Part shown: positions 9,089 through 58,034 of the stretch, piece by piece
How the letters are laid out: every line of letters starts with the position of its first letter
Numbering within the stretch: position 1 is the stretch's first letter
NCBI GenBank assembly: GCA_965231815.1
Contig: OZ246890.1
Coordinates: 2,747,351-2,811,350, forward strand
Direction of reading: 5' to 3'
Length of the DNA stretch: 64,000 nt
Source of the DNA: Acidimicrobiia bacterium
Lineage (GTDB): Bacteria; Actinomycetota; Acidimicrobiia; Spongiisociales; Spongiisociaceae
Position numbers and translations under genes: made by a program
The notes under the pieces: generated by a model
Databases searched by the model: none
What the model saw: the letters and a program-made list of their open reading frames with translations, nothing else
Told to the model about the DNA's origin: nothing

Positions 9089-10215
9089 GCAGCGTATCAA
9101 GAGAAACCGGGCCGCCGGCCATCCGCCTCGACCGTGTTACCAAACGGTTCGGGGGTGTCCTGGCTGTCGACAACGTCAGCCTCGAGATCGAAGAGGGCGA
9201 GTTCTTCTCGCTCCTCGGACCCAGCGGGTGCGGCAAGACCACCACACTACGGATGCTGGCCGGCTTCGAGACCCCCGACGAGGGGTTGGTCTACCTGCGC
9301 GGGAAGGACGTAACGCTGGTCCAGCCCAACAAGCGGGCCACCAACATGGTCTTCCAGAACTACGAGCTGTTCCCGCATATGACGGTGTCCAACAACGTGG
9401 CCTACGGACTGAAGCTCAAGAAAGTCCCGAAACGCGAGATCACCCGGCGGGTCGACGAGATGCTGGAAGCGGTCGGTGTCGGCGGCCTCGGCAAGCGCGC
9501 CGCTGATCAACTCTCGGGCGGCCAACAACAGCGGGTAGCTCTGGCGCGCGCCCTTATCAACCGCCCCGCCGTGCTCCTGCTCGATGAACCTCTGAGTGCT
9601 CTCGACGTGAAGCTTCGGAAGCGGATGCAGTTGGAGCTGAAGTCCATCCAGGAAACTCTCGGGACCACCTTCGTGTACGTAACCCACGACCAGGAGGAGG
9701 CCTTGCTGATGTCCGACCGGGTCGGGATCATGAATCACGGCGTGCTGCTGCAGGTCGCGACGCCTCGCACCATCTACGAGCAACCGGCCGACGACTTCGT
9801 GGCCGACTTCGTGGGGACTTTGAACGAGATCACCATCCGGATCGAGAACCTCGACGCCGGGCGAGGTCTGGTGGCCTCCGGCGACCGGGAAAGGATCTGG
9901 ATTGACGCGCCCGGCGGTATGTCAATCGGCCAGACCGTCAGACTGGCCGTACGGCCCGAAGCCCTCAAGATCACCCATCAGGACCGCTGGGACGGGGCGA
10001 CCGATCTGAGCTACGCCTGCGGCATCGTTTCCGATGTCATATACCTCGGCCCTTTCACACAATTCCTCATCGAGAGCGAACGGCTCGGGAGAGTGGTCAG
10101 CCAACAAGTGAGCGACGCCGGGGCAGCGGCGATCCAACCCGGCATGCAAGTGGTCGTCAGCTGGCATCCCGACACGGCATTCATGCTGGCCGGGCCTGCG
10201 AGTGAAGGTCGATGA
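9085..10215 (+). CDS. PotA-like ABC ATPase
   Basis: [24 protein letters not shown]-terminal TOBE-like region. Confidence 0.95.
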
Positions 10216-11141
10216 CGGGTGGCGGTGACGGCCCCATCCTCTCCATCAACCGCGATCTAGTCGGCTACAGCTACACGTCCCGGCTCGCTCCCCGCCTGAC
10301 CGTGGCGCCAGGCGCGACCGTCCGGTTCGAGACTTGGGACGCGCGGGCGGGCGCCCTTCTCGACCGAGTAGCCGGAAGACCGTTCGATCTGCCACCCCCC
10401 ATACCAGGACGAGGGAATCCGCTGACCGGTCCGCTGGCCATAAGGGGCACCGAACCCGGCGATGCACTCCTGGTGACGATCGACGAAATAGAGTGCATCT
10501 CCCCCGGATGGTGCGGAGGTCACGCGCACGTTGGGCCGCTCCCACCCGGCCGTGTTCCTCGCCCACTGGGACGGGTATGCACCCACGACGGCGAGTTCGT
10601 CCACTTCGGCGGAGACGTGCGATTGCCGCTCTCGCCGATGATCGGATGCATCGGGACCGCGGTGACGGGTGACCCACCGAACGCGGGCCTTCCGGGGAGG
10701 CACGGCGGCAATCTGGACCACCCCGTCATCGCGACGGGGGCGGTGGTGTACCTTCCGGTCTTCGTCGACGGGGGGCTCCTCTACATAGGTGACGTTCACG
10801 CCGCCCAGGGCGACGGCGAACTGTCAGGGGTCGGCCTCGAGATCCCGGCCGAGGTCACGGTTACGGTGGATATCGACCGCGGGCGGCGCCTCAGGTGGCC
10901 GTGGGTCGTGAACGAGGATCGCGTGATCGTCATGACCTCGGCCCTCGAGTTCGCGGACGCCAGGCGGGAAGCCGTCGAACAGGTCGTTCGCGTTCTCGAG
11001 ATGCAACTCGGCTACGAGCCGGCAGATGCTCTCGGCCTCATCTCCGTCGCCGGCAACCTCCGGATCGGCCAGGCGTTCGGCGGGATGGAGATAACCCTGC
11101 GCCTCGAGATGCCGAGATCTCTGGGGATCGTTCCCGCCTAG
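10212..11141 (+). CDS. Acetamidase/formamidase family protein
   Basis: NPLTGP, HGGNLD, GDVHAAQGDGELSG motifs. Confidence 0.9.
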   Translation: MTGGGDGPILSINRDLVGYSYTSRLAPRLTVAPGATVRFETWDARAGALLDRVAGRPFDLPPPIPGRGNPLTGPLAIRGTEPGDALLVTIDEIECISPGWCGGHAHVGPLPPGRVPRPLGRVCTHDGEFVHFGGDVRLPLSPMIGCIGTAVTGDPPNAGLPGRHGGNLDHPVIATGAVVYLPVFVDGGLLYIGDVHAAQGDGELSGVGLEIPAEVTVTVDIDRGRRLRWPWVVNEDRVIVMTSALEFADARREAVEQVVRVLEMQLGYEPADALGLISVAGNLRIGQAFGGMEITLRLEMPRSLGIVPA

Positions 11142-11326
11142 GATTCACTACGGAGATTGGATTCTCACCTTTGAGCGGGCATGAATCAACAGAGAAGACG
11201 AAGGCCTACGAACGTCGGTGGGGAAGGCCGAGAGGGCTACACATTCACCATCGAACGTGGAGTGTCGCTCGGTTGAGTAACTTTCAGGTTGATTATGTAT
11301 ACTGTGGTTTCATTTTCGGGTGAAGG

Positions 11327-11620
11327 ATGGCAATGACATCTACCAGTGAATTACTGACCGGCAGCGGCGGTTACCCGCGCGATCTCATCGCAGCATGGGC
11401 TAGCGCCGCTATCTCTCATGCTGAAGTGGAGCCGATCCAAGACCCTAATGGGTACTTCGCCACGGTTCCGGGGGCGCTCGGCGCCTGGGGATTCGGAGAG
11501 ACCATCGCCGAGGCGATAGCCGAGTTGGAGGAAGTGCTAGTTGATTGGGCAACATTGAAGTTATCCAACGGCCGCAAGGGTATTCCTGCGATGGGCGGTA
11601 TCCATCTCGTCAGTGGATGA
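11327..11620 (+). CDS. hicB: HicB family antitoxin
   Basis: YFATVPGALGAWGFGETIAEAIAELEEVL is the HicB N-terminal fold pattern. Confidence 0.85.
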   Translation: MAMTSTSELLTGSGGYPRDLIAAWASAAISHAEVEPIQDPNGYFATVPGALGAWGFGETIAEAIAELEEVLVDWATLKLSNGRKGIPAMGGIHLVSG

Positions 11621-46975: not shown

Positions 46976-47680
46976 TCAACCTTCCGGGGGGAGCGGATTC
47001 CACTCTTCGTAGGTCATCCCGACGGCTTGTCGAGGCTCCTTGGTGCGGACGTGGTTGTAGATGTACAGGTACGGCCGGTAGACATGGAGCAGGGAGCGAA
47101 GCTCGCCGACGGCGTCGGACGCGTGGAAGTCGATGCGCAGATCGATGTCGGGAAACGTATCCGTCTCGGCCACCACCAGCGTGGCCGAGCGCTCGTAGAG
47201 GTCCCCGCCCTGGCCTCCGGCATCGCGACCGGCCTCCAGGCCGGCCACCAAGCGGTCCTCCACAGGATTCCCCGCCGCCGACTCGAACGCATCGGCCATC
47301 GCTTCGACCACCCCTTCGCCCTCGAGGGAGTTCCCCGTGGCGATGTAGCCGTCGCCGATGACGTGGCCGGACCAGTGGCCTGTCCTGTCCCCGGTGTGCG
47401 CAGCGGCGACCCCGTCCGGGGTCAGCACTGCGGTCTGGCGAAAGGCGTAGTCGGGATCAACGTCGGCCAACCCGGTGACGACTTCCGCAGGAGAGAGGCC
47501 GCGCTCCAGCATGTCGGTTGCCACGGGGAGCAGCCTGGGGTCGGCATACGCCTGGCTGGCGATCGCGCCGATGCCAGACCGGACCACCTGGCAGTACCCG
47601 CCGGCGGCGATCGAGTGGGTGGCGATGCCGATGCCGACGCGGCCCGTCGCAGAGTCACATCCGAGGATCGTATAGGTCAT
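46976..47680 (-). CDS. DUF1028 (Ntn-hydrolase-like) protein
   Basis: MTYTILG start, GAIASQA, AHTG, GN, AGRDAGG, RSA, DLRID. Confidence 0.88.
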   Translation of the reverse strand: MTYTILGCDSATGRVGIGIATHSIAAGGYCQVVRSGIGAIASQAYADPRLLPVATDMLERGLSPAEVVTGLADVDPDYAFRQTAVLTPDGVAAAHTGDRTGHWSGHVIGDGYIATGNSLEGEGVVEAMADAFESAAGNPVEDRLVAGLEAGRDAGGQGGDLYERSATLVVAETDTFPDIDLRIDFHASDAVGELRSLLHVYRPYLYIYNHVRTKEPRQAVGMTYEEWNPLPPEG

Positions 47681-47892
47681 CTCGCCGTTCCGCCTTTGCT
47701 GGTCATTGCTGGTCCGGGCCGAGCCAGCCGAACTCGGAGACCGTTGACCAGGCGGTGGCATTGCGACCCGTCCATTTCGAGCTTACGGCTCATCTCGGTG
47801 ATGCCGAGCCCGGTGGGGTGATCCACGCGAAGCTCGAGTGCGCGCAGAGAGTTGACTCCGCTCAACTGTCGCGTTCTCTTTGGTTCCGTCAT
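47677..47892 (-). pseudogene. IclR HTH-only fragment
   Basis: RALEL..LGITEMSRKLEMDGSQCHRLV with no effector domain. Confidence 0.6.
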
Positions 47893-47981
47893 GTGGTCGC
47901 GCCGCGTGTAAACCGTTACCTTACCGGTCGCCCTGTTGACTGGGCAAAGAGTTTTGACTCTACTCATTCGGGGTGCGATTC

Positions 47982-48469
47982 ATGGATGCTGAACTGGCTG
48001 GCTGGCTGGCAGTTCTGGATCGATCGCGGCGGCACGTTCACCGACATCGTGGCGCGCACGCCGGCAGGTAGCGTGCTCACGCACAAGCTGCTCTCTGACA
48101 ACCCCAGGCACTACGACGACCCCGCCATAGAGGGCATCCGACGGCTGATCTCCACCGATCCCGACGCCGGCTCCGTCGAGGCGGTGCGTATGGGCACCAC
48201 GGTCGCCACGAACGCGCTGCTCGAGAGAGCAGGCGAGCGCACGTTGTTCGTACGTCAGGATCTCATCTACGGCCAGATCAAGGTGATCGGCAGCATCAGT
48301 GAGTCCAGCTTCGGTGAGGTGGCCGACGACACGGTGGTGCTGGGCCCACACCTGATCCGGGTCGGGTTGGGCGAATACTGGGTCTCGGACCAGGAGCGGC
48401 TAAAGACGCTCGCCCGGTTGTGCGCAGACGGCTACAGCAAGCAGGTCATGATTGCGCACGACCACTGTC
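47982..48469 (+). pseudogene. In-frame chimera: hydantoinase/oxoprolinase N-terminus plus phosphotriesterase-like fragment, cut by IS3
   Basis: WQFWIDRGGTFTD...MGTTVATNALLER, then SDQERLKTLARLCADGYSKQVMIAHDHC. Confidence 0.8.
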
Positions 48470-48554
48470 TGGGGTTCCCCCCGCTGGCCGGACATTCCCA
48501 CAGTGAGCGCGTTTGGTCTCCGACAATGGGACTGCGCTCTGGGAAGGAGTCCTG

Positions 48555-48851
48555 TTGGGAGGGAAACGACCGAGAAGAAGGTTCTCGGATGAGTTCAAAC
48601 GAGACGCGGTAGAGATCGTCCGCACCTCAGGCAAGCCGATCCGCCAGGTCGCCAACGAGTTGGGGATCTATGACTCCACGCTGGGAAACTGGGTACGCCA
48701 GGACGAGCTCAACCGGGGTGAGCGGGAAGGTCTCAACTCCGATGAGCGGGAACGGCTCCGGGAACTCGAGCGGGAGAACGCTCGGCTGCGGATGGAGCGT
48801 GAGCTCTTAAAACGAGCTGTGGCCTTCTGGGTAAGGGAGTCGAACGAGTGA
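48555..48851 (+). CDS. IS3 transposase OrfA
   Basis: RRFSDEFKRDAV HTH, leucine zipper, LKRAVAFW; AAGGAG RBS and TTG start. Confidence 0.93.
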   Translation: MGGKRPRRRFSDEFKRDAVEIVRTSGKPIRQVANELGIYDSTLGNWVRQDELNRGEREGLNSDERERLRELERENARLRMERELLKRAVAFWVRESNE

Positions 48852-49729
48852 CGCTGTATCGCTTTGTCGATGCTCAGAGGGCCGAAGGTTTCCCGGTGAG
48901 GCTCATCTGTTCGGTGGTCGGGGTATCTGCGTCTGCCTACCACGCGTATCGGAAGCGGCCCCAGTCGGGGCCGGCGCAGCTGGCCGAGGCCGCCCTGGTG
49001 GCTGAGATCCGGGGGATCTGGGCAGAGTCGGGCGGGACCTATGGTTCGCCCAGAGTGTGCGCTGAGCTGCGTAGGCGGGGCCGGGTTGTGAACCACAAAC
49101 GGGTGGAACGGTTGATGAAACGCCACGGTATGGCCGGTTTCGTATCCCGCAAACGGCGTGTCACCACCACGTCGGGCACTGCACATCGGCGCCCTGACCT
49201 GCTCAGAGGCGACTTCGCCGCTTCGGCGCCGGACGTCGCTTGGGTCGGCGACATCAGCTACATCAGAACCCGCCAAGGGTTCCTCTACCTAGCCTTCGTC
49301 GTGGACCTGGCATCCCGCCGCGTGGTCGGTATCTCCATGGCACCACACCTCAAATCATCACTCGCCACCGACGCTCTGCGCGAAGCGATCGCAACCCGGG
49401 GCGGCCAGGTACGAGGGGTAGTGTTCCACACCGACCGCGGCAGCCAGTACACCTCTGACGCTACAGCTCAACTGTGCCGGGCGTATGACATCCGCCAATC
49501 CGTGGGCCGGACCGGGGTGTGTTGGGACAACGCCGCCGCCGAGTCGTTCCTCGGCACCCTCAAGAAAGAACTCGTCAACCGGGCCGACTACCAGAACCGG
49601 TACCAGGCCCGCCTATCAATCCGATACTGGATCGAAGCCTGGTACAACCCCCGCTGGCTTCACTCCATGATCGGACAGCAGCCACCAAACGAATGGGAGG
49701 ACAACTACTACCATCACACGGCCGCATAA
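48848..49729 (+). CDS. IS3 transposase OrfB (DDE)
   Basis: YGSPR, WVGDISY, HTDRGSQY, WDNAAAESF; GTGA overlap with orfA. Confidence 0.95.
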   Translation: MTLYRFVDAQRAEGFPVRLICSVVGVSASAYHAYRKRPQSGPAQLAEAALVAEIRGIWAESGGTYGSPRVCAELRRRGRVVNHKRVERLMKRHGMAGFVSRKRRVTTTSGTAHRRPDLLRGDFAASAPDVAWVGDISYIRTRQGFLYLAFVVDLASRRVVGISMAPHLKSSLATDALREAIATRGGQVRGVVFHTDRGSQYTSDATAQLCRAYDIRQSVGRTGVCWDNAAAESFLGTLKKELVNRADYQNRYQARLSIRYWIEAWYNPRWLHSMIGQQPPNEWEDNYYHHTAA

Positions 49730-49889
49730 ACCGAGTGTCCAGCTCACGGGGGGAACTCCAAGCACAGCACGGTCCAAGACCTATGATGACAAGCCGGTAC
49801 AGATGCTGGTCGGATCGCCGGTGGGACACCCTGGGCGAGCCGGACATGTGCTGGCGGCGGACCGGTCACTTGAGAATAAAGGAACGAGT

Positions 49890-52177
49890 ATGGCAACACA
49901 GCGCTTCTCCCACACACAGTACCCAATCAACGCGTTGGTTGAGAACATCGACAGTGGGGAGTTGAGCTTGCCGGATCTTCAGCGCCCATTCGTGTGGAAA
50001 CGGTCACGTGTGCGAGACCTCTTTGACTCGCTTTACCACGGGTACCCGGCCGGGTACTTCCTGTTCTGGTCCACACCGGCACCTGTCGACAGCCACACAA
50101 GGTCGGAACTTCCCCGGGAGTCTTGAAGGGCCTGAAAATGATTGTCGATGGTCAGCAACGGCTAACAAGCCTGTGGGCGGTGATGAAGGGACAACCTGTC
50201 GTCACCGACAAGAACGAACTGCAGCTGATCCGTATCTCGTTCAATCCTCTGAGCGAGGAGTTCGCCGTCGCTGACGCGGCCCGCGAGAACGACCCGGAGT
50301 GGCTGACCAGCATCACCGAGATCTGGACAAGCCCAGACAGCAAGTGGGCTTTCACGAACAGGTTCATCGCGCAGCTCGCTGCAGCTCGTGAGCTTTTAGC
50401 AGAGGAACAAGACCAGATCGGCGCAAACCTTGGCAAGCTTGCGGGGCTGAAGGACTATCAGTTCTCGGCGGTGGAACTTTCTTCTGCCCTTGACATTGCC
50501 GAGGTTGCAGAAGTCTTCGTCCGGATCAATTCGAAGAACACCCCCTTGAACAGTGCGGACTTCATCCTCACCTTGATGTCGGTCCACAGGAAGGAAGCCC
50601 GCCATCAACTGGAGGACTTCGCACGTAGCGCCAAGTCGCCTTCGACAACCGGACCGTCGCCCTACAACCACTTCCTAACGCCGTCCCCTGACCAGCTTCT
50701 TCGAGTGGCGGTTGGGTTCGGTCTCAGACGCGGGGTCCTCCAAAACGCATACCAAGCGCTACGCGGCCAAGACCCCCAGACGAAGATCGTTACCGAGAAG
50801 ACCCGCAACGAGAACTTCGCCCGGCTCCTAGCCGCTCAGGAGCATGTACTCAATCTCACCAACTGGCACAGCTACATAGTTGCTGTCAAACGCGCGGGAT
50901 ACCGCAGCAGCGAAATGCTCACATCTGCCAACAACTTCCTCTACTGCTACATCGTTTTCCTGATCGGCCGCCACGAGTACGGGGTAGGCCAGAGCGAGCT
51001 GCGCGAAGCGGTCGCCCGCTGGTTCTTCATGGCTTCGCTCACGGGTCGGTACACCGGGAGCCCCGAAACCATCCTCGAAGCCGACCTCCGTCGATTCTCC
51101 GAGGCCCACTCGGCCGATGATTTCATCGGGATCATCGACCATGTCATCGATACCCAACTCACTTCGGACTTCTGGTCAGTGACACTGCCAGACCGCCTCG
51201 AATCGTCCTCTGCTTGGAGTCCGAACCTCTTCGGCTACTACGCCAGCCTCAACCTGCTCGACGCTAAGGCCCTGTTCTCGAACATGAAAATCAACGACCT
51301 CTTCGACCCTGGCCTCAAACAAGTCAAAAGCCCAGTCGAGCGGCACCACCTGTACCCGAAGGCCTACCTGTCCTCCATCGGAGTGACCGGCACCACCCGC
51401 ACGAACCAGATCGCGAACTTTGCGTTTGTTGAATGGGCGACCAACATCGCTATCTCTGGCAAGAAGCCCTCAGAGTACTTCCCTGAGTACTTCGAGAAGG
51501 TGCCTCCCACCGACCAGGAGCGAGCCGCGTTCTGGCATGCGCTACCCCCCGAGTGGGAACACATGGACTACTTCGAGTTTCTTCGAGAGCGGCGCAAGCT
51601 TCTAGCCGACGTGGTCAAGGCCGGCTTCGAGCACCTCCGCTCCGGAGGTGTACACGAAGCAAAGGCGAGCCATCACATAGGGCTCCCAACAGTTTCGGAC
51701 CTGCTCCGATCTATGGAGACTCAACGTGTCGAGTTCAAGAAATCCGCCCGCGTCGCTCTCGACAACAACGCCCCAGAGAGAGTGATCAACGAAGGCGTGG
51801 TCAAAACCGTCGCTGCGTTCTTGAACGCCAACGGCGGAACCCTCGGGATCGGCATCACCGACGACGGCGACATCCTCGGGCTGCAACCCGACCTCGACTA
51901 CAAGAAACAGGACCTCGACGGCTACCAGAACTGGCTAACCACACTGCTGATAAACAACATCGGTGCCGGAGTAGTAGGCGCCCATGTGAGCCTACGCATC
52001 GAGCCGGTCGGCTCCGAGGCGGTCTGCCTAGTAGACGTGACCCCATCCCCGGCACCCGTATACGCGAAAACCACCAAAGCCAACACCTGCTTCTACGTAC
52101 GAATCAACAACACCACCCGCATGCTCGAAGGACCACAAATCCTCACCTACATTGACGGCCACTGGAAAACACCCTAA
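49890..52177 (+). CDS. GmrSD-like (DUF262 + HNH) protein fused to a C-terminal Schlafen/AlbA_2 domain; +2 frameshift near 50095
   Basis: LPDLQRPFVW, VDGQQRLT, FVRINS; ERHHLYPK..NQIANF..N; VEFKKS..KTVAAFLNANGGTLGIGITDDG; deleting CA from CACACA at 50094-50099 gives 761 aa. Confidence 0.85.
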
Positions 52178-52192
52178 CCATGTGTCTCGAGG

Positions 52193-53017
52193 ATGTGCAT
52201 GCGGGCTGACCACGACGCCGGGCGGATGTTTCCCTGTACGACCTGCCGGAAGCCGCGGTCAGGTCACACCCGTGCCGACTGGCTGGCGTGCAGGGTCTGG
52301 GAGAGCATGCACTGCATGGTCTGTCGTCGTTCGCACTCCGATCACACCCCTGCCGAGCGGGATCGGTGCGATGCCAGTTGCTTCACCTGCAAGCAGCCTT
52401 CCGACTGGCACACTACCGATCAGACGGCCGAGTGTGCCCGTTTGCGCGAGGAACGCCAGCAGCGCCGGCCAAAGTTGCCGTACTGCGGGGTCTGCCTACT
52501 TGAGTGGGATCACCCCGCGGCGTTCCGCCACGTTGAGTGCATCCGTCGGGCCGAGCTACCGATCGACGTCTGCCACATCTGCGCTCGGCCGATGGAGGAC
52601 CACATCCCAGCCGAGGTGGAGGTTTGTGCATCAGTACCCTTCGATATCTGCCCGGTCTGTGATCGGCCGATGGAGGCGCATACGCCGTCTCAGGTGGAGA
52701 CTTGCGCGGCTGCGTTCGGTGCAACAATGGCAGGCCGACCGTTCCGGGCGTGGCTGCTGCGCTTCCCGCTGAACCCGCGGCTGTGGGCAACGGTCGCCCT
52801 GCTGCTATGCCTCACCGGATGGAGAGCGGGGGCGGGTCTGTGGGCACTGGGCGGGTTCTTGCTGGTTTGTGGGCTGGTCCACACCGTCCTATGGAACACG
52901 GTTAAGAGGCTGCCCGCGGTGGCAGCCCTGCTGGTGGTTGGGCTGCTGGTCGCGGCCGTGGTCTGGGCGGGGCCGTGGCTGGCTACGTGGTGGCCGATCG
53001 GGGTCGCCATCGACTAA
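52193..53017 (+). CDS. Hypothetical protein with six CxxC..H..C repeats and C-terminal TM helices
   Basis: Five exact C-x2-C-x6-H-x7-C units plus one variant, then about three hydrophobic segments. Confidence 0.7.
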   Translation: MCMRADHDAGRMFPCTTCRKPRSGHTRADWLACRVWESMHCMVCRRSHSDHTPAERDRCDASCFTCKQPSDWHTTDQTAECARLREERQQRRPKLPYCGVCLLEWDHPAAFRHVECIRRAELPIDVCHICARPMEDHIPAEVEVCASVPFDICPVCDRPMEAHTPSQVETCAAAFGATMAGRPFRAWLLRFPLNPRLWATVALLLCLTGWRAGAGLWALGGFLLVCGLVHTVLWNTVKRLPAVAALLVVGLLVAAVVWAGPWLATWWPIGVAID

Positions 53018-53166
53018 CCCACGAGAGACCCGCCAGTCTGAGTAACCGCTAAGCGGACTTTATGCTCTCCTGAGTCCCGCGGAGACTGCATCCTGTGGCC
53101 CGCGAGATCTTCGACGTCGCTGAGTAGCCTCAGTAAGGCAGTGGCGGAGTTGGAGGTATCGGGCGA

Positions 53167-53258
53167 ATACCTGCAATACCCGACCTGCCCGAAACCCCCC
53201 GACCAGGTGTTACGTGAAACGCCCGGACGCGTGAAACCTGCGGGATACCTGCAATACC
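53167..53258. repeat. Short direct repeats upstream of the recombinase
   Basis: ATACCTGCAATACC at 53167-53180 and 53245-53258; CGTGAAAC at 53213-53220 and 53230-53237. Confidence 0.6.
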
Positions 53259-53314
53259 TCACCGAACCGGCCATTTACCCGGCGATGTCACTACCGGTGG
53301 GCATACTCGGGGGC

Positions 53315-54143
53315 ATGGGTTCTGTTGTCCACTTCCCCCCACCCGCAGCACCGGAGCCGGATCATCCGGTGCGCCATGTCCCGTCCCTGTCCGGGGCGGT
53401 GGAGGCCTTCTTCGCCCACCGTGACCTCGCCGCGGAGACCCGCCGCAGCTACCGCAAAGCCCTCGATCCCCTCATCGAGGCGGTGGACGACGACAACCGT
53501 CCGGTTACTGACCTCGACCCGAATCTGGTGGCGGCCGTGTTCGCCGAGCGGTGGGATGGTTGCGCGCCGGCGACGTGGAACACCCGGCGGGTCGCCCTCC
53601 AGGCCTTCGCTTCCTGGTGCGGCGATCGGTGGCTCCTAGCTGCTGATCCTCCGACTGGTGTGGCGCCCGGCCGCCGGCAGGCGGACAACACCCGGGCGAT
53701 CCCGCTCGAGGATCTCGAGGAACTATGGCGGAGGAGGACGGTGCCGCTTCGGGAGAAGGCGCTGTGGCGGATGCTGTACGAAACGGCCGCCCGCGCATCG
53801 GAGGTCGTGGCCGTCGACGTGGAGGACCTCGACCGGGCGAGACGGAGGGCCCGGATCCGCTCCAAAGGCGGCAGCGTCGACATGATCCTGTGGGCGGCGC
53901 CCACCGCCCGCCTCTCGTACCGAACAGCCGCCGGGGGAGTTCCAAAAAACACTCCGGAGGGTGGACCCTCCACCAGCTCCGCCACTCGTCGCTTACGTAT
54001 CTGGCCGAGGCGGGAGTCTCCGCGGTGATGCTGCAGGCCAAGAGCCGGCATCGAGACCTGCGTACCTTGTCGTCTATACGCGGCCCGGTGTCGAAGCAGT
54101 CGCGCGGCTCACCGCTAACCACTACGACAGCCCTGGCGGCTAA
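53315..54143 (+). pseudogene. Tyrosine recombinase pseudogene (probable internal deletion, two frameshifts)
   Basis: LYETAARASE (R), SKGG (K), LHQLRH, SRH and YTRP distributed over three frames. Confidence 0.85.
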
Positions 54144-54362
54144 CCAGCGATCCGGCACGCTTCCTGTCTGAGCGCTGGCACCGAACAGTTCTGGGGACGG
54201 GAACCGGCGTGGCGATCGTCCGCCAGACCGTGTAGACGGTCTGGTCCTCGGTTCTTCTTCCAATCCGGCGGTCTGGGGTTCCTCGCCATTGGACAACCTC
54301 AACCTTCCCGGCCCGTTAATCGGCTTCTGGGGCCTCGGGTTTGGGAGATCCGACTAGCTGAT

Positions 54363-55226
54363 TCAGGGCTGGGGGAGTAGCACCAGGTAAGGCTCTAAAT
54401 AGTGCTTCGCAACAATGGTTGCAACAGTTATGCCCCCCCATTTGATCAACAACACGAGGCCCTTGCCCACCTGTTTGGTCACGATGTACACAGCCCGCCT
54501 GTCCTCGTCACGGCGGGAACCAATGTCGGTGGTCTGGCTCCGGACGAGATCGGTTGCTTTGGCTGAGGTGTTGTAATCGTCTTGGAAGGCACCGTCCTCG
54601 AACTCGAGTTCGAGGAACTCAGCTATCGAGAACTTGGGGATCGAGAGGTTAGGTGGTCTGGCTGAGCCGCTGATCATGTCGCGGATTCCTGAGTGCTCGA
54701 ACACGGCAGTAGCGGTGGTGAGTGCGTCGCGGCGGGTTGAGTAGCCAGCCAGGATGGCTGCGTTGCCGAAAAGGTCGGCAATGCCGGGCGGTGTGGCTAT
54801 GCCGATCAAAGCGGGTGCGGCCTCGAACTTGGGCTTGGGGAAAGCAGACACCGGAAACTCGAACTTGGGAAAATCGACACTCAGGGCGAGTGGAGGGGTT
54901 ATCAGCCGGGAGAGGTGGGTGGTCATGCGTTTGTTGTGGTCGAGCATGGCACTCAGGGCGGGTGGAGGGGTTGCCAGCCGGGAGAGGTGGGTGGTCATGC
55001 GTTTGTTGTGGTCGAGCATGGCACTCAGGGCGGGTGGAGGGGTTGCCAGCCGGGAGAGGTGGGTGGTCATGCGTTTGTTGTGGTCGAGCATGGCACTCAG
55101 GGCGGGTGGAGGGGTTGCCAGCCGGGAGAGGTGGGTGGTCATGCGTTTGTTGTGGTCGAGCATGGCACTCAGGGCGGGTGTTGGTGCGAGCTGGCTGGCC
55201 AGGCTGGAGTTGCTGAGTTCGGTCAT
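54363..55226 (-). CDS. Hypothetical protein with four 24-aa tandem repeats and a hydrophobic C-terminus
   Basis: Repeat unit PPPALSAMLDHNKRMTTHLSRLAT; open frame continues through unique sequence. Confidence 0.6.
   Translation of the reverse strand: MTELSNSSLASQLAPTPALSAMLDHNKRMTTHLSRLATPPPALSAMLDHNKRMTTHLSRLATPPPALSAMLDHNKRMTTHLSRLATPPPALSAMLDHNKRMTTHLSRLITPPLALSVDFPKFEFPVSAFPKPKFEAAPALIGIATPPGIADLFGNAAILAGYSTRRDALTTATAVFEHSGIRDMISGSARPPNLSIPKFSIAEFLELEFEDGAFQDDYNTSAKATDLVRSQTTDIGSRRDEDRRAVYIVTKQVGKGLVLLIKWGGITVATIVAKHYLEPYLVLLPQP
54878..55180. repeat. 72-bp near-perfect tandem repeat, four full units plus a partial
   Basis: CACTCAGGGCG recurs at 54878, 54950, 55022, 55094 and 55166. Confidence 0.95.
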
Positions 55227-55315
55227 AGTTCTGCCTATGGTTGTTCTGGCCCCAGGATAGAGGGTGGTGGGAGAAACACCGAGGCAAACGAGGGATGCCG
55301 CGGTTGGAGCAGTTG

Positions 55316-55468
55316 TTGACGCATCTGGCTGAGGCTGGTGTATCGGCGGTGATGTTGCAGGTGAAGAGCCGACATCGGTATCTTCGTACTTTGTCGGTGT
55401 ACACCCGACCAGGTGTAGAGGCGGTGGCTCGGCTTACTGCCGACCAGTTCGATGGTCCGGCACGTTGA
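55316..55468 (+). pseudogene. Diverged second copy of the tyrosine recombinase 3' end
   Basis: LTHLAEAGVSAVMLQVKSRHRYLRTLSVYTRPGVEAVARLTA matches 53992-54143. Confidence 0.88.
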
Positions 55469-55608
55469 CTATGTCAACCCACCGGTTCCAAGGGCCGGTC
55501 CAGCATCGGCCGGATGCCTCGGCGAGTTCGTGAAGGGCCATCGGGTGCGGGAGCGGTGCGTCCTTCGACCATGACCACCTCGGGAAGCTGATCACCTACG
55601 CCGCCGCG

Positions 55609-56160
55609 TTGGAAGTTCGTTGGGCTGTCCTGGTCGCGAAACAGTTCCGCCCCGAGCACCGCTCAGCGCTTACCCGGCTCAATTCCATCTCGGGTAAAGG
55701 AAACGGCTTCTTCGGAATCGAAGTTCAAGCCGTCCGTATCGCGGACTCTCCCACGGCGATCCGACTCGACATGGTTGCCAAACCCGACGACTTCTCACGA
55801 CGGGCACAAGCCGGAGCGACCAACGTATCCGAGACAGGGGGTCGCTACATCGAGTGGTGGGCAGAGTTCCTTCCCGAGTTCCACGCCGCACACCCAGGTT
55901 GGAGCAACGCTCACAAACCGTCGTACGCCAACTGGATGAACTTCCCTAGCGGCAAGGGCGGCGTTCGCTACGGACTCAACTTCGCGTATCCCACCGGCGC
56001 TTCCAACTACAGCCTCTCCGCCCATGTGTACATGGACGACGGCGACTCGGTCTACCCGGCGCTTGAAGCCCAACGCTCGGAGATCGAAGCTACATGCGGC
56101 CTCGCCCTCCAATGGGACCCAGGCGAGAACAAGCAATCCTCGCGAGTCGAAGCGTGTCCA
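55609..56160 (+). pseudogene. DUF4268-like protein fragment truncated by the IS end
   Basis: AKQFRPEHRSALTRLN, FFGIEV, YIEWWAEF, RSEIEA..LQW; runs into the IS3 right-end copy. Confidence 0.65.
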
Positions 56161-56221
56161 GACAAATACTACCATCACACGGCCGCATAAACCGAGTGTC
56201 CAGCTCACGGGGGGAACTCCA
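56161..56221 (+). mobile_element. Isolated IS3 right-end copy
   Basis: 61 bp matching 49700-49760 with one mismatch. Confidence 0.92.
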
Positions 56222-56370
56222 GTCTCAAGGTGCACTTCGCCGAGCACGGCGGCAAGGGATGGGTGTACCCTCTGACCGAGGTGGTTCCGATGCTGCGCGA
56301 GGCCGGGGTCACCGAAGATCAGTTGAACGATATCCTGGTGGAGAACCCGAAGCGGATCTTCGCCGTCTGA
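56222..56370 (+). pseudogene. 3' end of the interrupted phosphotriesterase-like gene
   Basis: LKVHFAEHGGKGWVYPLTEVVPMLREAGVTEDQLNDILVENPKRIFAV*, homologous to the end of 41045-42130. Confidence 0.85.
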
Positions 56371-56378
56371 GGGTTGAG

Positions 56379-56747
56379 ATGATGAAGATCGGCGCGGTCA
56401 TGCTCTACGTCGACGATTTCGACACGGCACTCGAGTTCTATCGCGACACCGTAGGCCTGGATGTTGCCGACATAGAGCCCGGAGTCGGTTACCAGCCGTT
56501 GGTCGACTTCGCATTCCTGACGTCGGACCGAGCAGCGCTTGAGGTATTCGATCGCGCCACCCACGGCTCCGGCATCACGGACGATGAGGCAGGGCGGGTG
56601 CACATCGGGCTGGAAGTGGCCGATCTGGCAACGGAAAGGGACCGCCTCGACGCGATGGGCGCTACCGAGACCCGCGACTGGGGGACGTACTTCGTCCTGT
56701 CCGACCCCGAAGGCAACCGGCTACAGGTCTACCAGTTCGCAGGATGA
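56379..56747 (+). CDS. VOC/glyoxalase family protein
   Basis: LYVDDFDTALEFYRDTVGL, HIGLEV, SDPEGNRLQV. Confidence 0.88.
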   Translation: MMKIGAVMLYVDDFDTALEFYRDTVGLDVADIEPGVGYQPLVDFAFLTSDRAALEVFDRATHGSGITDDEAGRVHIGLEVADLATERDRLDAMGATETRDWGTYFVLSDPEGNRLQVYQFAG

Positions 56748-57985
56748 TCGACCTCACCGACGCCGGCGTAGTCGACTTCCATGCCCACATGTCGCTCCAG
56801 ATCGGTGTGGGCGAGCTGATCCGGCGCGACGTGACCGCTCAACTGAACCTCTTCCACGGCACGCCGGGCACGTCATATCGCTGGGACGATCTTGAACCGG
56901 CCCCCGACTACGAGCGCGGCATGGCGCAATGGGCCCACCCGCTCAACTCGCAGTACCGCATGCTGATCAGGTACGTGGCCGGGGCCCTGGGATGCGAGCC
57001 CGATGTCGTGGAGATCGACGAAACGCTCTCTGCCACGATGGAGCAGGGCTTCAGCATGTATCTGGAATCGGTGCTCGACCGGGAGCGTATCGACCTCGTC
57101 GTGCTCGACCTGCTCGGCGAGTTGCGTGACGGGGCCGCCGGATTCCCGGACGACCGTTATGTGTGGATCTACGGAATCACCCCGTTGCTCTCTCCACTTG
57201 CCGTGATCGAGAGCGGCATCACTTCGCTCGACGACGCCATCAGGTGGGTCGACGAGTCGATCGACAGTGCCGTGGCGCAAGGGTGCGTCGGGTTCAAGAA
57301 CCTGATGGGCTACTACCGCGCGCTCGACGTCTCGAGGCCCACCGCCGATGAAGCCGCTTCCGGGCTGCGCCAGGTAGCGGCGACGCCCCCGGCCGACGTG
57401 AAAGAGTCGTTCCTGTACGGGCGTGTCGGGATCTACGACGAGGCGGCCGGGCGCGCGGCGCGGGCATACGAGGACTTCGTGATCCGCCACATCGTCGCCC
57501 GCGCCGGCGATCTCGGCCTGCTGCAGCTGATTCACACCGGGGCCCAGTACTCGCCCAACCAGAACCTGCACGCCGCGGATCCGGCACGCTTGTTCTCCCT
57601 TTTCTCGGACCCGGCTTCGAACGGAACGACGTTCGTCATGCTCCATGCCGGGGCGCCGTACCACGAGAACGCCGCCTACATGGCCTGGCAGTTTCCCAAC
57701 GTGTACGTCGACCTGTCCCACACGATGCGGATACCGGGGCGCCTCAATTCGATTCTGAGCACCATTCTGTCCATAGCTCCTGCGCACAAGGTGCTCTACG
57801 GCAGCGATTCCTACGCATCGGCCGAATGGCTCGGCTACAGCGCACACCGGATGCGGAAACATCTGGCACTCGTGCTGAGCGATCTCTCTGCCGACCTGGA
57901 GTGGACCGAGGCGGAGGCCGAACAAGCCGGCCGGATGGTGCTCGGAGACAACGCCAGGGCCATACTGCCCGGTGTCGCTCGGTGA
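56744..57985 (+). CDS. Amidohydrolase_2 family protein (FluG N-terminal-like)
   Basis: VDFHAH, GFKN..YYR.L, IHTG, LHAGAPY, LYGSD. Confidence 0.82.
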   Translation: MIDLTDAGVVDFHAHMSLQIGVGELIRRDVTAQLNLFHGTPGTSYRWDDLEPAPDYERGMAQWAHPLNSQYRMLIRYVAGALGCEPDVVEIDETLSATMEQGFSMYLESVLDRERIDLVVLDLLGELRDGAAGFPDDRYVWIYGITPLLSPLAVIESGITSLDDAIRWVDESIDSAVAQGCVGFKNLMGYYRALDVSRPTADEAASGLRQVAATPPADVKESFLYGRVGIYDEAAGRAARAYEDFVIRHIVARAGDLGLLQLIHTGAQYSPNQNLHAADPARLFSLFSDPASNGTTFVMLHAGAPYHENAAYMAWQFPNVYVDLSHTMRIPGRLNSILSTILSIAPAHKVLYGSDSYASAEWLGYSAHRMRKHLALVLSDLSADLEWTEAEAEQAGRMVLGDNARAILPGVAR

Positions 57986-58034
57986 GCGACCAGGCCCATT
58001 TCCAGGCATGTCAACGGATTTGACTCACTACTAA

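Follow-up and report, generated by a model that had tools for sequence, protein, structure and literature searches.

A DUF262-Schlafen gene, probably inactivated by a two-nucleotide insertion, on an IS3-family unit in an Acidimicrobiia genome

Introduction

Do two neighboring genes in an Acidimicrobiia genome form a defence system, or have they come together by chance? The window analyzed here, a stretch of 64,000 nucleotides from contig OZ246890.1, contains a gene that a sequence-only reading described as a fusion of a GmrSD-type restriction enzyme with a Schlafen RNase domain, followed by a gene for a membrane protein with Cys/His (CCHC) repeats. The two were proposed as a two-gene defence system.

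The fusion is already in print: DUF262-Schlafen proteins are a named class of prokaryotic Schlafens, DUF262 fusions making up 1.8% of the 5,930 surveyed (PMC13056530), and the architecture of the window gene is accordingly published and not new. Its suggested defence character is in keeping with the phage-defence activity reported for this class, whose member EcoSlfn7 (E. coli UC4224) lowers T7 plating about 540-fold and restricts other phages as well; the data on EcoSlfn7 are plating data only, tRNA cleavage having been demonstrated for RorSlfn5 (PMC13056530). In the available text of the same paper the DUF262-Slfn class is not followed up mechanistically, and the word GmrSD has 0 occurrences (PMC13056530).

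Results and Discussion

A frameshifted GmrSD-Schlafen gene

Positions 49890-52177 of the window hold one GmrSD-Schlafen gene on the forward strand, which is split into two reading frames by two extra nucleotides. The gene, its parts and its neighbor are as follows.

49890..50126, + strand: 5' piece of the GmrSD-Schlafen gene, 78 codons (GmrSD_N, E 9e-12; 69/69 identical to P0001 residues 1-69)
50094..50099, + strand: CACACA run with the 2-nt insertion; the P0001 sequence S-H-K-V-G-T needs a frame switch here
50123..52177, + strand: rest of the gene, 684 codons from TTG (GmrSD_N, SLFN_AlbA_2, HEC-05; 665/684 residues as in P0001)
51338..51445, + strand: HNH-type motif E-R-H-H-L-Y-P...N...N...N (P0001 residues 483-518; invariant H/N positions)
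51716..52123, + strand: Schlafen/AlbA_2 domain (PF04326, 57 bits; E-x4-E-x-K at its start, 51716-51739)
52193..53017, + strand: CCHC-repeat membrane protein gene (six Cys/His units; likely true start 52226)

The closest relative of the window gene, P0001, is an intact protein of 761 aa and 97% identical, confirming that the window copy is frameshifted, as the sequence-only reading had noted. The reading frame of the 5' piece agrees with the relatives to about 50096 and is then off-frame until a TGA. All 19 differences from P0001 lie in variable columns or occur in the family. Runs X1 and X3 show the same frameshift in their Logan contigs (49731-54932: 0 differences, 0 gaps), which may represent the source strain's own data and so are not independent proof of it. 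Alignments of the X6 contigs end at 50097, run X5 has zero depth over 50037-50327 and is hence silent on the frameshift, and the share of words present was at most 0.05 in every RNA run.

As judged from its nucleotides, the window copy cannot make the full-length protein. We consider it improbable that the gene is still functional, be it that the 684-residue piece is translated, that ribosomes shift frame, or that the insertion reflects a sequencing error. The frameshift aside, every invariant family position is intact, the long open reading frame retains DGQQR along with the HNH-type motif and Schlafen domain, and it might yet be translated from its TTG; but such a product would lack the first 77 residues, which comprise the QRPxxW block, invariant in the family, and a DLFDS stretch that corresponds to the RLFDS nucleotide-binding motif of BrxU. 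Moreover, all of the relatives listed have a single open frame, no slippery sequence is evident by eye at 50094-50099, and the contigs of two runs (X1 and X3) carry the same letters. We are confident that the best explanation is a recently inactivated copy of a single-gene DUF262-Schlafen phage-defence protein, a judgment that applies jointly to the inactivation, to an IS-bounded cargo unit and to an unrelated CCHC gene, both described below.

Domains and structure of the fusion protein

The sequence-only reading had placed DUF262 motifs and an HNH-type segment ahead of a C-terminal AlbA_2/Schlafen domain, and had recommended profile searches for DUF262, DUF1524 and AlbA_2 together with structure prediction. 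The motifs QRPFVW, DGQQR, FVRINS, ERHHLYPK..N..N, EFKKS and AFLNANGG all occur in the translations, and the 684-codon piece contains, in order, the remainder of DUF262 with DGQQR, a helical linker, the HNH-type region and the Schlafen domain. Both named end domains were recovered: Pfam GmrSD_N (DUF262, PF03235) matches both pieces, the longer at E 1.5e-13, and SLFN_AlbA_2 (PF04326) covers residues 532-667 of the long piece (E 3.5e-15, cut-off 25.3 bits), spanning profile positions 1-116 of 118 and counting as full length (>100 aa). The window Schlafen motif reads E-TQRV-E-F-K, which fits the catalytic motif defined as E-x4-(E/D)-x-K (PMC13056530; Perez Taboada et al., Nat Microbiol 2026).

The HNH-type segment fared less well. 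Its motif is present, the PADLOC HEC-05 (BrxU-type) profile spans residues 265-500 (E 2.9e-16), and the region lies within an alignment with BrxU, but Pfam DUF1524 (PF07510) gave no match at E ≤ 0.01 with the long piece or at E ≤ 10 with a 171-aa stretch, and we treat the segment as a motif-level observation only. NCBIfam returned no family for either gene piece.

The structure model has an overall pLDDT of 76.9, falling to only 37-53 over residues 471-520, the HNH-type region. A Foldseek search with the model retrieved BrxU (E 7e-13), and in VIA-align residues 6-585 aligned with the whole BrxU chain (1-582; Z 14.8, 499 residues aligned), while matches to the ParB N-domain had Z 5-5.8. Residues 597-761 aligned with the RNase domains of SAMD9 tRNase (Z 12.8-13.3) and SLFN5/11/13/14 (Z 9-10), the range for the Schlafen domain against these and DIP2311 being Z 9-14. 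Similarly, a PDB profile search returned BrxU (7p9k, E 6.8e-18) as well as SLFN14, SLFN12 and SLFN5 (E 6e-8 to 1e-4).

The family resembles BrxU over the entire chain of the latter, with HEC-05 profiles matching both gene halves and with shared motifs (DGQQR; DLFDS for RLFDS; x-H-[IL]-[YF]-P for DHIYP; BrxU motifs from the available text of PMC8565348). It differs in adding a C-terminal Schlafen domain of about 170 residues, in having no Pfam DUF1524 match, in a structural-alignment identity of 17-18%, and in reading HHL(F/Y)P in place of DHIYP, so that the first motif position is His in the family and Asp in BrxU. The phosphorothioate-sensing proteins SspE and DndI share the DUF262-linker-nuclease layout (Z 10.6 for the SspE C-terminal domain and 9.1 for DndI), but the sequence signal is much weaker (E 0.059), and no Ssp or Dnd modification operon was seen adjoining the GmrSD-Schlafen gene in the window. 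With eukaryotic SLFN11/13/14 and the SAMD9 tRNase it shares the nuclease-lobe fold and catalytic motif; unlike these, it has one lobe-sized domain of about 165 residues, without the helicase part, fused to a restriction enzyme. The likeness to EcoSlfn7 is one of domain composition and motif: both combine DUF262 with PF04326 and E-x4-(E/D)-x-K in a single gene, often near defence genes. In contrast to EcoSlfn7, the window copy is frameshifted and its host is a high-GC genome outside the Enterobacterales; in the window the two domains share one polypeptide only when read across the frameshift, as they do outright in its relatives.

Fused and unfused members of the family

The GmrSD-Schlafen fusion is real and conserved: among the best 120 relatives, which are about 760 aa long, both Pfam domains are listed for most. 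NTPase (DGQQR), HNH-type (E-x-HH-L-x-P...N...N...N) and Schlafen RNase (E-x4-E-x-K) motifs that look intact recur throughout the family. DGQQR, H485, H486, N505, N509, N518, E609, E614 and K616 are invariant in 21/21 family sequences. A metagenome set of 80 loci yielded 75 complete open reading frames, comprising 37 long forms and 38 short forms (571-696 aa) without the Schlafen part, the latter 43-49% identical to the fused forms; plasmid homologues also stop at about query residue 582, corresponding to a stand-alone core. No long form (37/37) and no short form (38/38) departs from the two His and three Asn positions of the HNH-type motif; DGQQR is kept in 37/37 long and 37/38 short forms, and the Schlafen E/E/K positions in 35, 32 and 32 of the 37 long forms. 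Because the 37 long forms, defined by length, exceed the 30 loci matched by tblastn with the P0001 Schlafen part, some C-termini must be too diverged for this query.

The family gene is often found within type I restriction-modification (R-M) operons, which is in line with the proposed defence character. Its neighbors include type I R-M HsdR, HsdS and HsdM, Eco57I-type methylases and an HNH gene, and long and short forms occupy similar sites inside such operons. Across 11 genome loci no neighbor similarity between loci was detected at E ≤ 1e-5. The largest neighbor clusters across the 80 metagenome loci comprise 9, 6, 4 and 4 loci, and the cluster representatives scanned encode the type I R-M subunits HsdS, HsdR and HsdM as well as a ResIII-type helicase. 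The genome of the window also carries an intact paralogue of the GmrSD-Schlafen gene, which encodes 763 aa (G000:C1:2622688-2624934).

One or two nucleases in intact members

Intact members of about 760 aa consist of a BrxU-like GmrSD type IV module, a short linker and a C-terminal Schlafen RNase domain. Within the module, a ParB-like DUF262 NTPase (DGQQR) is joined through a helical linker to a putative nuclease region of His-Me/HNH type. BrxU cleaves modified (e.g., hydroxymethylated, glucosylated) DNA in an NTP-dependent manner, according to the available text of two reports (PMC8565348; PMC12409352). By analogy, the GmrSD module would bind NTP and recognize phage DNA, probably modified, which the HNH-type site would then cut, and the same event would license the Schlafen domain to cut tRNA, shutting down translation.

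One reading, to which we give somewhat less than an even chance, is that intact members are two-nuclease enzymes, a BrxU-like DNA cutter with a Schlafen tRNase as fallback via the same NTP/DNA-dependent switch, the short forms without Schlafen representing, in this reading, the ancestral state. Only slightly less likely is that the GmrSD part is instead a sensor or switch that combines NTP binding with DNA recognition but does not cut, leaving the Schlafen RNase as sole effector. The published treatment of fused domains as sensors, with DUF262 a likely sensor and not a second nuclease in the available text (PMC13056530), is consistent with such a role, as are the missing Pfam DUF1524 match, the replacement of the Asp of DHIYP by His, and the low model confidence across the HNH-type region. 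A mere sensor fits poorly, however, with the HH...N...N...N pattern being as invariant in the fused as in the unfused forms; since it is kept in unfused forms that lack another effector, this is what would be expected of a site that is still catalytic. The "DUF262 sensor" of the Schlafen class corresponds to a whole BrxU-like enzyme with its nuclease-type motif equally conserved whether fused or unfused, and the dual DNA/RNA effector is therefore directly testable. If intact members do have two nucleases, direct restriction and abortive infection would be combined within one polypeptide, and a clade with short and long forms would provide a natural comparison with and without Schlafen. Within this genome the finding matters little, because the gene is in all probability dead, its architecture has been published before, and what was proposed as its partner appears to be a chance neighbor.

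The CCHC-repeat gene as a neighbor

Much of the original description of the CCHC gene is accurate. The protein contains six C-x2-C-x5-7-H-x6-9-C units (0/2000 shuffles reached six, the maximum being 2) and a hydrophobic C-terminal stretch (211-266), and an ATG does lie 15 nt past the GmrSD-Schlafen stop. The start needs revision: relatives P0122, P0123 and P0125 begin at a Met aligned with CCHC residue 12 (position 52226), which would put the likely start 48 nt past the stop, while the N termini of P0121 and P0124 are slightly longer, each in its own way. The protein had no match in PADLOC or NCBIfam and no usable match in the ESM Atlas; its structure model is poor (pLDDT 52.4, pTM 0.28), and a metagenome scan with the CCHC alignment turned up no relative among its 323 pattern matches.

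That the two genes form a defence system, in which the membrane metal-finger protein would assist or regulate the GmrSD-Schlafen protein, is in our view very improbable. They are co-oriented, separated by 15-48 nt and carried on one mobile unit, and run X5 has the same junction (52102-52321, 0 differences); this junction is at strain-level identity, and the run probably derives from the same organism. Set against this is the scarcity of the CCHC gene, with five relatives among 5.8 billion proteins as opposed to a very large fusion family, and with matches in 3/401 genomes of the order, namely its own genome, one real match in the same genus and one marginal (E 3.9e-4). A survey of homologous neighborhoods, an empty outcome of which the sequence-only reading had itself named as refuting its idea, never placed it beside a fusion homologue: it was found at 0/11 genome loci, the intact paralogue of the same genome included, and at 0/80 metagenome loci, in counts that leave out the contigs of P0001 and of the CCHC relatives P0122-P0125; 24/37 complete long metagenome forms have at least 900 nt of DNA past the stop. 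In the one related genome that has it (G169) the CCHC gene follows a TrwC relaxase-primase, DNA homology to the window is confined to 52234-53038, and the 19 kb examined around it hold no GmrSD gene (no P0001 match). Conversely, a contig from another organism (X6 record 32) diverges from the window at 52184, 7 nt past the stop, and its next 984 nt are unlike the window.

GC content also jumps at the gene boundary, from 0.57-0.60 over 49800-52200 to 0.66-0.67 over 52200-53000, the difference in base composition on which, together with the frameshift, the original caveat of an accidental pairing was founded. That caveat has proved apt, and the CCHC gene is, on the sequence record, separate mobile DNA of different origin, an unrelated passenger and not a partner.

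The mobile unit

The placement of both genes on a transposable unit was verified by comparison with an empty site. The 7,752 bp at 48470-56221 are one insertion, flanked by a GTC duplication; in three genomes of the same genus (L030, L031, and L032) the site is empty and has a single GTC. The unit and its other cargo comprise the following.

48467..48469, no strand: target-site duplication GTC, left copy (empty-site comparison)
48470..49760, + strand: IS3-family insertion sequence (inverted repeat I2; Pfam HTH_Tnp_1 and rve/HTH_21/rve_3)
53141..54171, + strand: tyrosine recombinase pseudogene, read in at least two frames (frame 53141-54028: Phage_int_SAM_1, Phage_integrase)
54363..55226, - strand: open reading frame with 24-aa tandem repeats, overlying a DNA repeat (72 nt x 4.2, 54878-55180)
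55609..56190, + strand: DUF4268 gene, truncated 3' by the solo end of the IS (matches positions 2-102 of the 140-position DUF4268 profile)
56161..56221, + strand: second, solo copy of the IS right end (final 61 nt, IRR included; direct repeat D3, 98%); right boundary of the unit
56222..56224, no strand: target-site duplication GTC, right copy (empty-site comparison)

The insertion sequence, the sole full copy in the genome, consists of IRL (48470-48497), orfA (48513-48851; HTH_Tnp_1), orfB (48848-49729; rve/HTH_21/rve_3) and IRR (49733-49760), with I2 measuring 28 nt at 79%. An HTH orfA with a DDE/rve orfB, terminal inverted repeats and a short target duplication place it in the IS3 family. 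Among the cargo, the recombinase pseudogene matches XerC/XerD models weakly and its C-terminal part runs on in other frames, the repeat-containing open reading frame belongs to no Pfam or NCBIfam family, and the final residues of the DUF4268 gene are those of the end of the IS orfB.

The unit, from IS left end to solo right end, entered a phosphotriesterase-gene remnant in a single piece; this interrupted gene is a 3' remnant only, in the relatives as well. The orfA/orfB pair, TG...CA inverted repeats and 3-bp duplication resemble those of IS3-family and composite or one-ended IS units, but on the right the unit is closed by a solo end of 61 nt and not by a second full IS, and the cargo comprises 6.4 kb of mostly broken genes. 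The locus is a clean, empty-site-verified case of an IS3-family element that has moved 6.4 kb of cargo, with a complete copy on one side and a 61-nt end on the other. Just outside the unit, near 48044-48196, skips and loose ends in the read contigs correspond to hydantoinase-like sequence of other organisms.

A BrxU-like enzyme with an added Schlafen domain

The GmrSD-Schlafen gene (49890-52177) is divided between two overlapping frames:

49890-50126, + strand: 5' piece, ORF of 78 codons
50123-52177, + strand: main piece, ORF of 684 codons, overlapping the 5' piece

GmrSD_N (PF03235) matches the 78-codon frame at profile positions 2-50 and the 684-codon frame at 59-195 (Pfam), complementary ranges which indicate two parts of one domain, while SLFN_AlbA_2 (PF04326) falls on residues 532-667 of the 684-codon piece (57 bits, where the cut-off is 25.3; Pfam). 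PADLOC HEC-05 profiles, whose representative is reported as 99.2% identical to BrxU (bioRxiv 10.1101/2024.01.29.577857), match the 78-codon piece at E 1.2e-17 and the 684-codon piece over residues 265-500 (E 2.9e-16; positions 362-591 of the 600 in the profile). The profile of 21 fusion-family members finds BrxU (7P9K; E 6.8e-18) through its N-terminal half, and its C-terminal 130 residues find SLFN14, SLFN12 and SLFN5 (E 6e-8 to 1e-4).

Foldseek and VIA-align comparisons were based on the AlphaFold model of P0001, the nearest database protein (mean pLDDT 76.9). The model matches BrxU in Foldseek (E 7e-13), and VIA-align pairs its residues 6-585 with BrxU chain residues 1-582 (Z 14.8, 499 residues aligned) and 217-584 with the SspE C-terminal domain (Z 10.6). 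Residues 597-761 match DIP2311 (Z 14.1), the tRNase/DNA-binding domain of SAMD9 (Z 12.8-13.3) and SLFN5, SLFN11, SLFN13 and SLFN14 (Z 9-10). Given these profile and structural matches to BrxU and SLFN/SAMD9, the fusion protein is best modelled as an entire BrxU-like enzyme carrying an extra C-terminal Schlafen domain. The sequence-only reading of a GmrSD-Schlafen fusion with an AlbA_2 C-terminus, and of its likely role, was right.

That the Schlafen domain is an add-on is supported by plasmid-borne homologues, most of which stop near query residue 582 (only 3 of 48 records span at least 80% of the query), and by the short forms among metagenome loci: 80 loci yielded 75 complete ORFs, 38 short (571-696 aa) and 37 long (at least 700 aa), both 40-50% identical to P0001. 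In this sample the BrxU-like clade thus has long and short forms in roughly equal numbers.

Invariant among the 21 family members are QRPxxW, DGQQR, H485, H486, L487, P489, N505, N509, N518, E609, E614 and K616, the last three forming the E-x4-(E/D)-x-K motif given as the Schlafen active site (PMC13056530). The HH-L-x-P of the family resembles the DHIYP of BrxU, whose D474 and H475 are reported as required for DNA cleavage and defence (PMC8565348), but has His where BrxU has Asp. Among the metagenome ORFs, both His and all three Asn are present in every long (37/37) and every short (38/38) form, and the Schlafen E, E and K in 35, 32 and 32 of the 37 long ones. The proposed HNH-type segment holds as a conserved motif, with HH-L-x-P and three Asn invariant, but a firm DUF1524 call does not follow, because Pfam DUF1524 has no match in this region even at E ≤ 10, the P0001 model is weak across the stretch, and His replaces the BrxU Asp.

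Proteins of the DUF262-Schlafen kind are already described. DUF262 fusions make up 1.8% of 5,930 prokaryotic Schlafens, and one, EcoSlfn7, cuts the plating of a broad phage range, T7 by ~540-fold (Perez Taboada et al., Nat Microbiol 2026, PMC13056530); the mechanism worked out in that article concerns a class other than DUF262-Slfn. The texts of PMC13056530, PMC12839542 and PMC3710099 appear to describe neither an HNH-type site in the DUF262-Slfn class nor a dual-nuclease model. A testable idea is that the fused enzymes may have both nuclease sites in use.

Homologues often lie among restriction-modification genes, which fits a defence role. An HsdR end overlaps the start of the family gene in one locus (L014), an Eco57I-type methylase and helicase (L015) or an HNH gene (L022) are neighbours in others, and a metagenome locus (L052) has the order HsdM-HsdS-gene-HsdR. 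Neighbour clusters recur in the metagenome loci (9, 6, 4 and 4 loci), and the representatives scanned from them have domains of HsdS, HsdR, HsdM and a ResIII-type helicase. Clusters common to long and short forms include type I R-M subunit genes.

The window's genome also holds an intact 763-aa fusion paralogue outside the window (G000:C1:2622688-2624934; L003 1459-3750). It is 42-43% identical to P0001 and has QRPFVW, DGQQR, HHLFPK and E-x4-E-x-K, with Pro replacing Glu two residues upstream of the HH pair.

A dead copy

The window copy of the fusion gene is dead, and the frameshift suspected from the sequence was confirmed against P0001, which is uninterrupted at 761 aa. Window and P0001 are identical at 69/69 of residues 1-69 and at 665/684 of residues 78-761; comparison of both frames places two surplus nucleotides of the window in a CACACA run (50094-50099), where P0001 has Ser-His-Lys. 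None of the 19 amino-acid differences falls at an invariant family column, so the break looks recent. Logan contigs of 5,202 nt from two sequencing runs (X1 and X3) equal window 49731-54932, frameshift included, with 0 differences and 0 gaps; these runs may be data of the strain itself, and only if independent of the deposited assembly do they exclude an error there.

The CCHC gene as a passenger

52193-53017: CCHC gene, with six C-x2-C-x5-7-H-x6-9-C units and a hydrophobic tail at 211-266

The six Cys/His repeats proposed for this gene are real (0/2000 shuffles reach six). Three of the five relatives (P0122, P0123, P0125) begin at the Met that aligns with its residue 12 (52226). Pfam, NCBIfam, PADLOC and Atlas have no match for the protein.

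The suggestion that this gene partners the fusion gene in a two-gene system fails in the neighbourhood survey: it is absent from all 11 fusion-family loci in genomes, the 763-aa paralogue locus included, and from 80/80 metagenome loci. Several further lines argue the same way. The protein has five relatives among 5.8 billion proteins, and within the order it matches 3/401 genomes (that of the window, same-genus G169 at 85%, and one marginal). In G169 the gene comes after a TrwC relaxase-helicase-primase of 1,620 aa, inside an element that also has a phage-type integrase; across 19 kb around it the sole DNA common with window 47001-58000 is 52234-53038 (90%), and no P0001 match was found in the smaller CCHC loci of that genome. 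Contigs of another organism (run X6) match window 49761-52184, beginning directly behind the IS and ending 7 nt beyond the stop of the fusion gene, and one goes on with 984 nt that do not resemble the window. At the gene boundary GC goes up from 0.57-0.60 to 0.66-0.67, bearing out the noted difference in base composition. The two genes are separate modules whose junction lies between 52185 and 52233.

In G169 (L028, G169:C1:504000-523000, at 9929-11334) a 168-aa ORF region precedes the CCHC gene; likewise after the TrwC gene, it shows weak similarity (58% over 38 aa) to the CCHC repeats. Further downstream are DUF2971 and T5orf172-helicase genes.

The mobile unit and its cargo

48470-49760: IS3-family element with inverted repeats, HTH_Tnp_1 orfA and rve orfB
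53141-54171: tyrosine recombinase gene, broken across frames
54363-55226, - strand: repeat ORF of 287 aa with 24-aa repeats
55241-55468: second, separate recombinase C-terminal end, 1.1 kb beyond the first
56161-56221: second copy (98%) of the last 61 nt of the IS, cutting a DUF4268 gene

Both genes do ride on a transposable unit. GTC stands directly before 48470 and directly after 56221, and because three same-genus genomes (L030, L031, L032) have the two flanks joined directly with just one GTC, 48470-56221 (7,752 bp) is one insertion. It went into a 3' remnant of a gene of the phosphotriesterase family (PF02126, positions 215-297 of 298), in a region already decayed in relatives. The solo 61-nt end could be what was left when a second IS copy was deleted, or could have come about by another route.

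Besides the fusion and CCHC genes, the cargo comprises two recombinase remnants, the repeat ORF and the cut DUF4268 gene. The repeat ORF has no family match in Pfam or NCBIfam; a 72-nt tandem repeat (54878-55180; 4.2 copies, 98% matches) underlies its 24-aa repeats, and GC skew around it is strong, up to 0.42.

The window IS is the only complete copy in the genome. A partial copy (positions 134-1291, 86% identical) lies outside the window at G000:C1:2698675-2699838, with several smaller fragments elsewhere. At 48377 the window lacks 612 bp present in two other genomes (G169 and G190), a segment which in G169 contains a fragment of a Mutator-family transposase; fragments of hydantoinase and phosphotriesterase genes make up the patchwork flank.
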